11,485 bases of DNA from Candidatus Heimdallarchaeota archaeon (GTDB lineage: Archaea > Asgardarchaeota > Heimdallarchaeia > Heimdallarchaeales > Heimdallarchaeaceae), in contig JAAFKI010000153.1 of assembly GCA_021399345.1 (NCBI GenBank), forward strand, positions 1 to 11,485, in the 5' to 3' direction. Shown piece by piece: positions 121 to 10,099 of this stretch. The position numbers and the translations under genes were made by a program. Within the stretch, counting starts at the first letter, position 1; each line of letters begins with the position of its first letter. The notes beneath the pieces were generated by a model that saw nothing but the letters and a program-made list of their open reading frames with translations, did no database searches and was not told where the DNA came from.

Positions 121-158
121 AAGAAAAGAAAAACCAACCTCCCTAAGGTTGAAATAAA
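121..158 (+). repeat. Boundary repeat R1 (type A)
   Basis: AAGAAAAGAAAAACCAACCTCCCTAAGGTTGAAATAAA, with a perfect internal inverted repeat CAACCT(135-140)-CCCTA-AGGTTG(146-151). Confidence 0.9.
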
Positions 159-230
159 TTTGGAATCTGGAGTTTTGAGAATGTAGAAATTGACGCCTAA
201 ATTTTTTTATATGGAGATAACCTACAACAT

Positions 231-854
231 TTGGTCAACATGACGTTTAGATCCACATTATTTTATCGACCTTGGCGTTCGCTGATAGGATTGATACCTG
301 GATTTCTGGGGTCTCTTGCTGTGTTAATATATCTCATAGTTGCAGGAGTCACAGTTGTTGTTTTATACATAGTAGTTATACTTGTGTTACTTACTTTTCT
401 CTTATTTACTTTCTTAGCGATTGGTGAGATAGTAAGAAAAAACAAGAAAAAGAAAGATCTCACTATGCTTTCAAAAGAGGACAAACCTCCAAAACCCGAT
501 TCTATTAGACCTACATTACTTGATGAACAAGATGATGAAGTTAAAGCAATGGTTGAACGAGGAGATAAGGAATCTGTTAATTTATTATGCAATCGTGTTC
601 TTGATGGGAATGACAATGAACAAATGGTTGCACTGTGGGCTTTAGGACAAATTGGAGACCACCGAGCTATACCAACAGTTAGACAAGCACTAAATGATCC
701 TAATGAATATGTAAGAAGAAGAGCTGAACAGGTATTAGAGATGCTTGAAAAACAGATCGAATCCGGCTCTAAAGTCTATTTTTGTGCTGAATGTGGTTTT
801 GAAAATCCACTTAAAGCAGTATTTTGCAGGGAATGTGGTCATAAGATTAGCTAG
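231..854 (+). CDS. Membrane protein with HEAT/PBS-lyase-like repeats and a C-terminal zinc ribbon
   Basis: Long N-terminal hydrophobic segment (about 2 TM) followed by KNKKKK. HEAT-PBS motif ALWALGQIGDHRAIPTVRQALNDPNEYVRRRA. C-terminal CAECG-x9-CRECG. The true start may be ATG 240. Confidence 0.85.
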   Translation: MVNMTFRSTLFYRPWRSLIGLIPGFLGSLAVLIYLIVAGVTVVVLYIVVILVLLTFLLFTFLAIGEIVRKNKKKKDLTMLSKEDKPPKPDSIRPTLLDEQDDEVKAMVERGDKESVNLLCNRVLDGNDNEQMVALWALGQIGDHRAIPTVRQALNDPNEYVRRRAEQVLEMLEKQIESGSKVYFCAECGFENPLKAVFCRECGHKIS

Positions 855-863
855 GGAAGGAGG

Positions 864-891
864 AAAGAAAAACCAACCTCTTATGAGTGAA
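864..891 (+). repeat. Boundary repeat R2 (type A, right half diverged)
   Basis: AAAGAAAAACCAACCTCTTATGAGTGAA, between convergent genes. Confidence 0.8.
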
Positions 892-929
892 TTAAATAGT
901 GAAATTTCTGATATCTTCTTTCACGATTT

Positions 930-1331
930 CTAAATCAGTATTGAAGAAAGAAGGTTTGAATAAGATTTAAATTGTTCAAAATATTTGCCAGCTGTATATA
1001 TGAAGAAATCAGTATCTTCTTGGTTTGCTTCTCGTAAATTTCTCACTGCATTTTCAACAAAAGAATTGGATTCATTTACATAATTATTAAAACTTGAACT
1101 AGCATAAGACATGTTATTAGAGAAGCTTCTGAGGCAATTATCACATCCATAAGCATCAACATCAGCTTCTTCGTTACACCATCCGCAGAAGAATTCATCT
1201 GTTTTAATTAAAGGAAAACCGCAGTGATAACAATTATTTGTTTCAGAATCTACAGATTCTTTCACTATTATAGCTTTACAAAAAACACACTTTCTACCTA
1301 AAATTGTTGACCCCCTATATGTTCGACTCAT
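930..1331 (-). CDS. Double zinc-ribbon protein
   Basis: Four CxxC motifs (CVFC, CYHC, CGWC, CDNC). ATG preceded by GAGATGG. Confidence 0.8.
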   Translation of the reverse strand: MSRTYRGSTILGRKCVFCKAIIVKESVDSETNNCYHCGFPLIKTDEFFCGWCNEEADVDAYGCDNCLRSFSNNMSYASSSFNNYVNESNSFVENAVRNLREANQEDTDFFIYTAGKYFEQFKSYSNLLSSILI

Positions 1332-1374
1332 TTATGACCATCTCTGTTTTATTTGTGAATTTGATTGTTCTTGT

Positions 1375-7308: not shown

Positions 7309-7334
7309 GAAAAGAAAGACCAACCTCCCTAAGG
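7309..7334 (+). repeat. Boundary repeat R7 (type A)
   Basis: GAAAAGAAAGACCAACCTCCCTAAGG, between convergent genes. Confidence 0.88.
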
Positions 7335-7362
7335 GAATCAATTAACGATACGATTCTAAAAA

Positions 7363-7572
7363 TTAGTCTGAATCCTCTTGAAGCAATTCATAGTATTGTA
7401 CTTTAAATGCACTCATTCCAATACTGTGAAACCAAGGTTTAGAAAATTCAAAATCAATGTATTTGTCAGAATTATTAAGCAGATCAATTCTAAAACGAAG
7501 CTCTTCTTGTAACTTCCCATAAAAAGTTAGAATAAGAAAGGAAATTATGATCACTGAACATGGTGATTTCAT
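7363..7572 (-). CDS. Possible small hypothetical protein or gene remnant
   Basis: 69-aa ORF with a hydrophobic N-terminus. It fills the gap between R7 and the next gene; no recognisable motif. Confidence 0.3.
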   Translation of the reverse strand: MKSPCSVIIISFLILTFYGKLQEELRFRIDLLNNSDKYIDFEFSKPWFHSIGMSAFKVQYYELLQEDSD

Positions 7573-7614
7573 CTATTAATGGAACAAGATTACAAATATA
7601 ATCTTTTTGGCATC

Positions 7615-9093
7615 TCAAGATGATGGTAAATCTATTTTACTATCTCTTCGGTTAATGATTACATCAATAACAAACTTCAGACCTATGATTCCAAGACAGA
7701 TTACTTCAAGCATATTTTGCAGAGTGACAAATGTTGCACCGATTTTACTTATCATCATCAAATCGGAATTATTAACCATGTAAATAATCGCTCTAACAAT
7801 TGATATTATAACATTGAATCCTAAAACCATCAAAGCAGGATTCCTATACTTTGGATTATAATTTCTAAGAACTAAAGAAATATTGAGAAAAGCAAAGAAT
7901 TGGAAAATATTTGCAAAAATTATCAGTGTCCCCCAACCCATAATTGAAATATTTGGTTCGATCTCCCATTTGAAGAAATAATTTCCTGAAGTTGTTGAAA
8001 TATAAATTATTTCAAAAATGAAGTAAAGGCACATGTAAACAACTGAACGAGTTACTCTGATAGTATTTTTATTCTTGATTTTTATACGTATCAAATAGAC
8101 CATCAAAGACAAATAAGTAAAGTAAATAATGATTCTTCCAACATAATTTCCGTCTGCAAAGTAAGGAATGAAATGAGTGACTTTTTCATCGTACACTATG
8201 AGAAAAGAGAAGATGAAAAATATACTTAAGATAATGAAAAAATGTGTATCCTTTGTATCTCTAAAAGACCAATTTCTCTGTTTATCATCTTGGTCATAAA
8301 GCTCTTGATCTTCACCTAGTTTAGTTGGTTTTGTAAAAATGATTCTCTTCGTAAAATGTTCCTTCTTGTGGAAATTCTTGGATAATATTAACCAGTTAAT
8401 ACCCAACCCTATCAAAATTAGAACAAAAATTCCATTCAGCACTACTTCAGAGAAAATTGTGGAATACCTTACCCTATTCTGAGGTGCCCAATCTGATAAG
8501 GTGTTAGTAAATGCAGTATAAAGAATATCAACAAATAAGAAATGATAGATACTTAGAAAGGTACCATATAAAAGAAACGAAACTAGAAATTCTCTTTGCA
8601 GACCCACAAGAAAAATAACAAATAGAGTGATGAGGATCAAAGCAGCAAAGATAGGTCTTACTATTACGTGAGAAATTACCTCAAATCTGTCAATTGATGA
8701 GTTAAACTCCCAATTTGCGAAGCTTATGATATTTAAAGTAATACTATAAATAAAAAGGAGAGCTGATAATCCAATTATAACTTTTAATACAGTTCTAATT
8801 GTATTTCTTGCTTTCTGTGTTTTTACATTCCAAGATTCAAATGAAAGTAATTTAATTGAAGTCAAGATTATTGGTATTAAAACTAATGAAGTAAGTAATT
8901 CTAAAATAAAAAATGGCAATCTTACTGGATCAACTAACTCTATATCTAAAAAGAAGTAAAAACTTACATTCAATAGTAAAAGTGGAATAACAGATAGATG
9001 AATAATTCCCAGTGTTTTAAAGAACTTGGAAATTTTAACATGCGTATCCAAATCTGAGGAGATTCTTGTAGATTCAATCTCTTGATCACTCAT
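7615..9093 (-). CDS. Polytopic membrane protein (about 12 TM, two hydrophobic halves)
   Basis: Many hydrophobic segments split by a charged loop (KPTKLGEDQELYDQDDKQ). ATG preceded by GGAGGA and overlapping the upstream stop. Confidence 0.85.
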   Translation of the reverse strand: MSDQEIESTRISSDLDTHVKISKFFKTLGIIHLSVIPLLLLNVSFYFFLDIELVDPVRLPFFILELLTSLVLIPIILTSIKLLSFESWNVKTQKARNTIRTVLKVIIGLSALLFIYSITLNIISFANWEFNSSIDRFEVISHVIVRPIFAALILITLFVIFLVGLQREFLVSFLLYGTFLSIYHFLFVDILYTAFTNTLSDWAPQNRVRYSTIFSEVVLNGIFVLILIGLGINWLILSKNFHKKEHFTKRIIFTKPTKLGEDQELYDQDDKQRNWSFRDTKDTHFFIILSIFFIFSFLIVYDEKVTHFIPYFADGNYVGRIIIYFTYLSLMVYLIRIKIKNKNTIRVTRSVVYMCLYFIFEIIYISTTSGNYFFKWEIEPNISIMGWGTLIIFANIFQFFAFLNISLVLRNYNPKYRNPALMVLGFNVIISIVRAIIYMVNNSDLMMISKIGATFVTLQNMLEVICLGIIGLKFVIDVIINRRDSKIDLPSS

Positions 9094-9787
9094 TGTCTTG
9101 ATCCTCCTGTAATTCTACTCTACCTAATCGATCTACCTTGATTTTACCTTTAACTATTGAACTTTTTTTCTTCTGAGGTGGTTTAAGATTTTTAGCCCAA
9201 CGACTATATGTCCTCAAATAGACACCAGTCAAACCTAAAACAATACCAACAGGAACAATAATCTCCCCTGGGATAACAGTTGGGTTTTTGAATGAAAACA
9301 AAGTTTCCCAACCTCCATAATAGGTATTATAAACTGTGTATGCACAAAATGGATCGTTCCCAAATTCTGCAAAGACTATTCTAACCATTAGTGAAACTGC
9401 TCCCCATTCCTCTTGGAAACCAACGGTTACCTCCCTGTATTTTACATCATCTGTATTATAAGAACCATATAAAACAGTTGTAAAGTGGTCACCAAGCTTC
9501 ACGTAAGCTGTAAGTGTGCCTTGTGTTACACAAATACCTAACCTTACTGATAATTGAAAAGATATGACTTGTTCACCGCCTTCATACTCAAGTGAAGTTG
9601 TGGTAGCGTATATTGATACACTGGAATAATTATCAGTTCCATAATGAATACTATTTGTAACATCCGCATTTGTAGAAAATATTGGAACAAAACAACACAA
9701 TATCAAAAAGAAATAGCAGAACAATTTATATCTAGACACAAGTTGAAAGTTAGAAAATGATATTTTAAAAAGGTTCCTCAAAACCAT
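9086..9787 (-). CDS. Exported beta-rich protein with a C-terminal TM anchor and charged cytoplasmic tail
   Basis: Hydrophobic leader (LFCYFFLILCCFVPIFSTNA), Ser/Thr/Tyr-rich domain, TM IIVPVGIVLGLTGVYL. 8-bp overlap with the downstream gene suggests translational coupling. Confidence 0.8.
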   Translation of the reverse strand: MVLRNLFKISFSNFQLVSRYKLFCYFFLILCCFVPIFSTNADVTNSIHYGTDNYSSVSIYATTTSLEYEGGEQVISFQLSVRLGICVTQGTLTAYVKLGDHFTTVLYGSYNTDDVKYREVTVGFQEEWGAVSLMVRIVFAEFGNDPFCAYTVYNTYYGGWETLFSFKNPTVIPGEIIVPVGIVLGLTGVYLRTYSRWAKNLKPPQKKKSSIVKGKIKVDRLGRVELQEDQDNE

Positions 9788-10054
9788 TTGATATTTTTTA
9801 ACAAGAATATTGAGTGTTTAAGGAAGTTGTTAATTGTTCATTATCTCGCATGAAGAATGAGCTACTTTCAAGTAATGGAGGACGGATTTCACTGAAATTG
9901 TTGTTTTTGTAAATTCTATTAGTATAATAAAAGAGGAAAATATGCATCTAGAATGTAAAATTATAAAAGAAGATGAAGCTGTAATCAAAAGGGCTTTTAT
10001 GTCTGTACTTAATAAGATGAGTTATTAAAGGGAAATAACATCCTGTTAGCGCTT

Positions 10055-10099
10055 AAGAAAAGAAAAACCCTCTCCCTGAGGTTAAAAAAGTAAAGAATT
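10055..10099 (+). repeat. Boundary repeat R8 (type B); on the minus strand a hairpin plus T-tract directly after the EhpF-like stop
   Basis: AAGAAAAGAAAAACCCTCTCCCTGAGGTTAAAAAAGTAAAGAATT. The minus strand reads AACCTC-AGGGA-GAGGGTT-TTTCTTTTCTT. Confidence 0.92.

Follow-up and report, generated by a model that had tools for sequence, protein, structure and literature searches.

The new analysis indicates that the window, an 11,485-nt stretch of DNA that makes up the entire contig C87 of the metagenome-assembled genome (MAG) G000 (3.27 Mb, 199 contigs, 88.6% complete), holds a genus-specific chromosomal gene-cassette array in the Heimdallarchaeaceae, anchored on the 3' end of a gene for an EhpF-like enzyme. 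The assignment to this Asgard family follows from the source names of close homologues. Each unit consists of one or more accessory genes plus one copy of a short site derived from the anchor gene's terminator, and strong comparative evidence shows that species differ by gain, loss and permutation of the units at these repeats, with their polarity fixed. The cassette-exchange platform is real, and it is neither an integron nor a pdif system. The comparisons draw on a DNA search across 40 genomes, on 16 retrieved loci from the same genus and on an exact-pattern scan of 25 genus genomes, and the repeat consensus and core counts refer to 52 copies (14 terminal and 38 internal) from 16 species. 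Throughout, G numbers denote genomes, C numbers contigs, L numbers retrieved loci and lower-case c numbers protein clusters, obtained by clustering all open reading frames (ORFs).

The window carries eight repeats, all on the plus strand as the first-pass annotation of this DNA had reported, which fall into two subtypes, A (GAAAAACCAACCTCCCT; R1, R2, R3, R6 and R7) and B (GAAAAACCCTCTCCCT; R4, R5 and R8):

121-152, plus strand: R1, subtype A, an intact hairpin (CCAACCT/CCCTA/AGGTTGG) after the A-tract
860-883, plus strand: R2, subtype A, degenerate (CAACCTCTTA), without the second arm
3273-3304, plus strand: R3, subtype A, hairpin near-intact
4346-4389, plus strand: R4, subtype B, an intact hairpin plus 12 nt of the anchor gene's 3' untranslated region (UTR)
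5104-5127, plus strand: R5, subtype B, without the second arm
5856-5884, plus strand: R6, subtype A, without the second arm, overlapping the 3' end of the M5 gene
7307-7334, plus strand: R7, subtype A, second arm lost (AAGGGAAT)
10055-10099, plus strand: R8, subtype B, the terminal copy, 4 nt past the anchor stop codon

The second arm, (A/G)AGGTTG, is present in R1, R3, R4 and R8 only, and the remaining four copies have in common only the A-tract and CC(AAC/CT)CTCC; the full-length pattern that had been proposed for all eight thus holds for the former and not for the latter. With up to three mismatches, that pattern finds four matches in the window and none in 200 dinucleotide-preserving shuffles, and R4 and R8 are 98% identical across 40 nt. 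The ORF map bears out the irregular spacing of the copies and their placement between convergent, divergent and tandem genes, and with it the claim that repeat polarity is independent of gene direction; R6, which had been placed between tandem genes, is not intergenic, since it supplies the last codons of the ORF at 5166-5891. The motif is not scattered through the genome, as the exact copies of ACCAACCTCCC (4 copies) and AAACCCTCTCCC (3 copies) in all of G000 are confined to a single strand of contig C87, that is, to one locus.

Comparison with relatives ties this row of repeats to the gene at its right-hand end:

10103-11269, minus strand: anchor gene (cluster c0), EhpF-like adenylate-forming enzyme of 383-388 aa, 70-91% identical across the genus

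Homology with relatives begins exactly at R8 and spans the anchor gene at 69-82% DNA identity (40 relatives), and brief repeat matches recur several times on those relatives' contigs. At all 16 of the 16 retrieved genus loci, a site lies directly 3' of the anchor, either as a single copy or as a co-oriented array. On the minus strand, T5CT4CTT follows the hairpin of R8, and together with the copy's position just past the stop codon this suggests that it is likely to serve as the terminator of the anchor gene; the first-pass annotation had noticed the cassette array and missed this anchoring. A simple terminator scan in the minus-strand orientation picked up R1 and R7. The genus consensus is AAGAAAAGAAAAATCAACCTCCCTAAGGTTGAAAAAAT, an A-tract followed by the hairpin TCAACCT/CCCTA/AGGTTGA, so that the conserved unit of 23-35 nt contains one stem of 6-7 bp. 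Its invariant part is the A-tract plus (T/C)CAACCTCC(C), with the (T/C)CAACCTCC core nearly invariant in the 52 copies. The second arm is intact in 10/14 terminal copies versus 19/38 internal ones, and the stem of subtype B is maintained by a paired change in both arms (CCTC...GAGG).

Specifically, the repeats reproduce the 3' end of the anchor gene. Of the 38 internal copies, about 12 run past the hairpin into the anchor 3' UTR and 10 reach the coding tail, with a duplicated anchor stretch (UTR or tail) of 12-85 nt; in the window, R4 alone extends past the hairpin. Total repeat length accordingly varies from 23 to ~130 nt. The distal boundary of the repeat, at the start of the A-tract, is fixed, and the anchor-side boundary is variable: it falls within the loop, beyond the UTR or at 9 to ~85 nt inside the coding tail; within the same cassette family, the length of the duplicated tail differs between genomes. 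On the left of the module c16+c17 in G009, the duplicated tail matches ~68 nt of the resident anchor tail almost perfectly, and the right-hand copy has A-tract, hairpin and UTR too. Among the extended copies, the best match is the resident anchor in 8 and another species' anchor in 5, and the latter suggest transfer between species. No clear trend emerged in repeat decay with distance from the anchor. A known RNA family or a tRNA-derived repeat was rejected as the source of the site, because Rfam 15 gave no family for the repeat at E up to 1 and a tRNA/tmRNA gene search found none.

Neither Pfam nor NCBIfam gives a match for the anchor protein, whose family profile matches EhpF (PDB 3l2k, 3hgu) over the full length with E = 2e-55. 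This match identifies it as an adenylate-forming enzyme and rules it out as a recombinase. No phenazine genes lie near the EhpF-like anchor. In the distant relatives L036 and L037, an aldehyde-dehydrogenase/LuxC-type gene follows ~330 nt past the anchor 3' end, on the side that the array takes up in this genus.

Across the 16 loci the cassette sets differ, and gene order is not syntenic; the expectation of a gene-site-gene array with modules gained, lost and reordered at breakpoints in the repeats is thereby borne out in relatives. The exact pattern AAANNCAACCTCCC gives 0-4 matches per genome in the 25 genus genomes, nearly all of them on anchor-gene or array contigs, and its reversed control gives 0-2 matches on either strand. 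Protein clustering shows that recurring modules appear in altered order and with different neighbours:

c2+c3: VapBC-like, antitoxin and PIN, in 4 arrays
c9+c10: HEPN-MNT, HepT and nucleotidyltransferase, in 4 arrays
c16+c17: recurrent module in 3 arrays
c6 (window M5), c15, c21 and c27: recurrent clusters in 2-4 arrays each
c15+c31: VapBC, recurrent module
c28 (window M4): recurrent module

Relative to the repeat, each of the 14 recurrent cargo families is found in one orientation only. Three cassettes are common to G008 and G005, in permuted order, and these are 95%, 84% and 88% identical against 89% for the flank, which indicates that the cassettes have separate histories; elsewhere, homologous cassettes have diverged to ~50% DNA identity. 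When the 15 nt next to the core were compared within cassette families, the cassette side was no different in identity from the background (0.71-0.73), because the A-tract is alike everywhere.

From repeat to repeat, units measure 549-4691 bp (median 760 bp) and hold 1-4 genes. Nineteen of 36 units, from ~12 unrelated cargo families, span 674-763 bp, including M1 (739 bp), M4 (758 bp) and M5 (755 bp), and they hold anything from a single 117-aa gene to one of 240 aa or a toxin-antitoxin pair; this clustering may reflect a size preference of the mobile unit. The content of a single cassette can be delimited with c2+c3, which in G008 and G005 is also found outside the array, upstream of the anchor gene and repeat-free. 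Its homology spans from ~35-40 nt before the first ATG, including a TATA-like box, to ~10-25 nt past the last stop, and in arrays the A-tract and core follow immediately. On the basis of this sole unit traced outside an array, a cassette would comprise cargo that brings its own upstream promoter-like region, plus one site, and such an upstream region may explain the free direction of the genes.

In four other genera of the family, anchor orthologues at 47-62% identity have ordinary genes behind them (two of the genomes are single contigs); neither a CAACCTCC site nor an array follows the anchor orthologue there, only a T-rich tail. This distribution suggests that the platform probably arose at the base of the genus. 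Among metagenome contigs, 3 of 81 matches are genuine, of which L073 represents one further species with a one-cassette array, and no extrachromosomal carrier of the site was found among the 81. The 25 matches of GAAAANNCAACCTCCCT on viral contigs all lack the A-tract and the second arm and were set aside as chance matches, so that this pattern revealed no viral carrier of the site.

The cassettes of the window itself, which occur on both strands, are as follows:

1-120, minus strand: M0, the start (ATG at 59) and upstream region of a gene cut by the contig end
231-854, plus strand: M1 gene, membrane protein of 204-207 aa with HEAT repeats and a C-terminal zinc ribbon
930-3177, minus strand: M2, two genes, 930-1331 (133 aa) and 1375-3177 (up to 600 aa, weak TPR/zinc-ribbon matches)
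3268-4341, plus strand: M3 gene, TPR protein, whose listed ORF begins at a TTG within R3
4533-5087, minus strand: M4 gene, 176-184 aa, no family match, with a homologue in the G021 array (cluster c28)
5166-5891, plus strand: M5 gene, 240 aa, cluster c6, ending in R6
5924-7285, plus strand: M6 gene, 453 aa
7363-9787, minus strand: M7, three genes, 7363-7572 (69 aa), 7615-9093 (492 aa) and 9086-9787 (233 aa)

The true start of M3 is probably a later ATG, giving 321 aa. Positions 2-159 of the window, which take in M0, are 71-73% identical to a ~270-bp module in G008:C66 and G005:C43, where it also lies just left of a repeat. M5 has homologous cassettes in G011, G002 and G021 in identical orientation, and in all four genomes the c6 ORF extends into the A-tract, which yields a Lys-rich C-terminus (KKEKKNQPPKKLI in the window, 5856-5891). 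M6 and the 492-aa protein of M7 are both absent from the 24 further genus genomes, and the latter has no relative among 5.8 billion proteins, so that this part of the cargo appears lineage-specific by sequence comparison. A search of the window cargo for defence or phage annotation returned weak repeat-domain matches only.

The available data are compatible with a model in which a unit would leave or arrive as DNA with one site copy, either as a circle or as transferred DNA, and recombination with any resident copy would insert it, leaving a direct repeat on either side. The required functions would be host-encoded and act in trans, and the process itself could be homology-dependent (Campbell-type) or of a duplication type, acting on the shared segment of 23-130 nt. 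Such homology- or host-driven exchange has a probability of about 0.5 and is somewhat likelier than an integron-style dedicated recombinase, because repeat length is variable, tails resemble the resident anchor, half of the sites lack a dyad and no enzyme is linked to the arrays. The first-pass annotation had proposed a site-specific capture platform, of which the cassette exchange stands; the enzyme catalysis does not stand as stated, as homology or duplication fits 3'-end copies of 23 to ~130 nt at least as well.

Several observations nevertheless weigh against exchange by homology. Many junctions, those at R2, R5, R6 and R7 included, share only ~23 nt, a short stretch for homologous recombination of the RadA type. 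The near-invariance of the core, set against the deep divergence of homologous cassettes, suggests that a particular sequence is under selection, as a protein-binding site would be. In the near-identical pair G008/G005, cassette-specific sequence meets the core on both sides and the transition falls within the ~10-nt core, which fits a fixed crossover point. Neither circular intermediates, excision products nor within-population variants were seen in three cold-seep runs, which held at most 0.14 of the sampled words and whose Logan contigs are pieces of 160-330 nt at a depth of 2-7, with one 'joint' that has a 20-nt side. Finally, the first acquisition of a site by a gene lacks an explanation if exchange relies on homology or host functions of this kind.

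Much of this would be accommodated by an integron-like, enzyme-catalysed system, in which a chromosomal recombinase acting in trans recognises the A-tract plus the CAACCTCC core, perhaps as the palindrome TCAACCT-N5-AGGTTGA, and excises and integrates single-site circles at a fixed crossover. The near-invariance of the core in 16 species, the co-orientation of all sites with a fixed polarity of each cassette, the sharp G008/G005 transition, the compensatory change that preserves the subtype B hairpin and the mere 23 nt common to many junctions all speak for it. So does the presence of candidate enzymes, two serine recombinases that are the only one of five searched enzyme families detected in G000:

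G000:C68:9446-10174 (L025:1489-2220): resolvase-type serine recombinase, 243-249 aa
G000:C125:45985-46686 (L026:1207-1956): paralogous resolvase-type serine recombinase, 243-249 aa

Both have an N-terminal catalytic domain with the intact active-site motif YVRTSTSDQ, and one of the genes adjoins a housekeeping (IF-2B-family) gene. They occur in 28 of 30 other family genomes, with the closer paralogue 52-99% identical, and the query found none in 16 genomes of three sister families; the pair is thus odd in looking like a 'core-genome' recombinase. This family-wide distribution, set against a genus-specific array, and the lack of a site copy adjoining either gene make the two enzymes candidates only. 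The system also sits poorly with the 19 of 38 internal sites that lack the second arm, and hence with the absence of a conserved dyad, and with repeats of 23 to ~130 nt that include anchor coding sequence. On balance, catalysis by a dedicated enzyme is a possible explanation, to be held tentatively.

None of the 10 largest window ORFs has a recombinase domain, in line with the earlier inference of a recombinase acting in trans or from outside the window. More widely, no recombinase domain was detected in the scanned cassette, flank and window proteins, and no integrase gene was seen beside any array. At its estimated completeness, G000 has no match to Phage_integrase (PF00589), Y1_Tnp (PF01797), Cas1 (PF01867) or RVT_1 (PF00078). 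Tyrosine recombinases were found in 13 of 25 genus genomes, none on the listed anchor-gene contigs. The lack of a Phage_integrase-family (XerA-type) recombinase in G000 and 11 other genus genomes is unusual for archaea unless it reflects assembly incompleteness. An origin by reverse transcription, an idea prompted by copies that end alike at 3' but reach variably far at 5', was rejected as no reverse transcriptase was detected in G000, and Cas1/casposase-type insertion was likewise rejected for want of a detectable Cas1.

The asymmetry of the repeat boundaries raises the question whether incoming DNA needs a site at all. Siteless DNA might instead be inserted at or near the anchor terminator by break-repair or replication-restart, with a long target duplication that runs from the fixed T-tract end to a variable point in the UTR or tail, and later shuffling would be recombination among the duplicates. 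This would account for one boundary being fixed and the other variable, for the left tail and complete right copy around c16+c17 in G009 and for the different tail lengths of one cassette family across genomes, and it has a precedent in restriction-modification units (PMC2853133). It does not account, however, for the preservation of the core in old internal copies, for duplicated tails whose best match is the anchor of another species or for the interleaving of subtype A and B copies in the window, and it is therefore unlikely. Least probable, indeed very improbable, is a locus without mobility, in which a conserved terminator or insulator (or a small RNA or protein-binding element) is reused in a hypervariable island and the homology is incidental: R8 and R1 do read as hairpin plus T-tract on the minus strand and each transcription-unit boundary in the window has a repeat copy, but polarity is independent of gene direction, four plus-strand window genes end at the non-terminating side of the repeat, GGGAGGTTG is the best-conserved part whereas archaeal termination requires only a T-tract, the element is restricted to one locus per genome, the toxin-antitoxin pair c2+c3 lacks it outside the array, and Rfam has no match.

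Integrons are the textbook gene-capture platform, with one enzyme family and one kind of site, and the locus gives an integron-like outcome without the integron enzyme or site. As in an integron, small mobile cassettes stand in a row between co-oriented, hairpin-capable sites beside one conserved gene, the cargo is rich in toxin-antitoxin pairs and ORFans, and even close relatives differ in which cassettes they have and in what order, with breakpoints at the sites. Unlike in an integron, there is no adjacent IntI and no tyrosine recombinase in G000; the site has 23-35 nt and one 6-7-bp stem instead of the 55-141 nt and two box pairs (R''-L''/L'-R') of attC; it is derived from the anchor terminator, possibly with the coding tail included; and the cassettes run in both directions, with c2+c3 bringing its ~35-40-nt upstream region and TATA-like box, where integron cassettes are promoterless, co-oriented and read from Pc. 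The locus thus works like a sedentary chromosomal integron and has none of its structural hallmarks, namely IntI, attC and promoterless co-oriented cassettes. Such chromosomal (sedentary) integrons have been reported in archaeal MAGs (Ghaly et al. 2022, PMC9668308).

A second parallel is offered by additive flexible genomic islands, or tandem accretion, at tRNA/tmRNA 3' ends in Alteromonas (PMC4898812) and 'Ca. Actinomarinales' (PMC7771536). There too, a variable island lies behind a conserved gene, strains differ by gain and loss of blocks, and the blocks are separated by direct repeats that copy the 3' end of the anchor gene. The present arrays differ in that the anchor is the terminator of a protein-coding gene, the units are small (0.55-4.7 kb, median ~0.76 kb, 1-4 genes), and no integrase is found in the scanned unit proteins or beside the arrays. 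The pdif sites of Acinetobacter plasmids are 28-bp Xer sites with an 11-6-11 structure that alternate in orientation round their modules and depend on XerC/D. Both systems have small modules, often toxin-antitoxin, with short bounding sites, and in pdif the recombinase is not module-encoded; here, by contrast, the sites are co-oriented and lack the 11-6-11 structure, the array is chromosomal rather than plasmid-borne, and no Xer-type recombinase (PF00589) was detected in G000. The single short stem and the co-orientation thus uphold the earlier statement that the site is neither attC nor pdif. Restriction-modification units insert with long target duplication (Furuta et al. 2010, PMC2853133), and they resemble the cassettes in lacking a mobility gene of their own and in being flanked by direct target duplications of tens to >100 bp. 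In this genus, however, the target is reused repeatedly into an array, one duplication boundary is fixed, and the same units recur in several species in differing order.

Two further candidates were rejected outright: a CRISPR array, as the intervals are 549-4691 bp long and carry genes versus spacers of 25-50 nt and G000 has no Cas1, and dispersed repeats of the repetitive extragenic palindromic (REP) or miniature inverted-repeat transposable element (MITE) type, as the exact G000 copies all lie on contig C87 and each genus genome has 0-4 exact matches. A literature search found no publication describing such arrays in Asgard archaea, and the words cassette and integron are absent from a study of circularised Heimdallarchaeum genomes. 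The Asgard archaea are the archaeal lineage closest to eukaryotes, and how they acquire genes is much debated. Here a row of self-contained cassettes, turning over fast at a single chromosomal address and shuffled among species, provides a testable handle on accessory-gene gain in this group, in the form of a 23-nt core and cassettes that are both defined, and of two candidate enzymes; as the site is a copy of a neighbouring gene's terminator, the array may also record how such platforms arise. The more far-reaching proposal, a capture system of the Heimdall group's own, unrelated to integrons and lineage-wide, with docking at a 3'-end terminator, promoter-bearing cassettes of ~0.7 kb and a host enzyme in trans (e.g. 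the serine recombinases), is a speculative one, with the odds against it.

Further observations concern the extent of the arrays. G009 has a second array (L014, G009:C106:1-15290) with at least 5 copies of the site, away from the anchor gene and 3' of another set of minus-strand genes (161-, 99- and 872-aa ORFs), and its conserved flank is inverted relative to G001; this array may have been newly seeded elsewhere, or an inversion may have had one breakpoint in an array. In G000, a clustered exact 14-mer scan for further arrays returned only paralogous gene ends, on C11 and C12. Contig C87 has a G+C content of 32.7% versus 33.5% for the genome, and its left end falls within cassette M0. Contig C92 (1457-3661) carries the amidohydrolase and hydrolase genes that border the far side of the array in relatives, and C75 carries a third flank gene (2756-3106) and, near the contig end, 3 degenerate co-oriented site copies (8369, 8975 and 9080). 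C92, C75 and C87 are probably one locus, and the G000 array would then have at least 11 sites.

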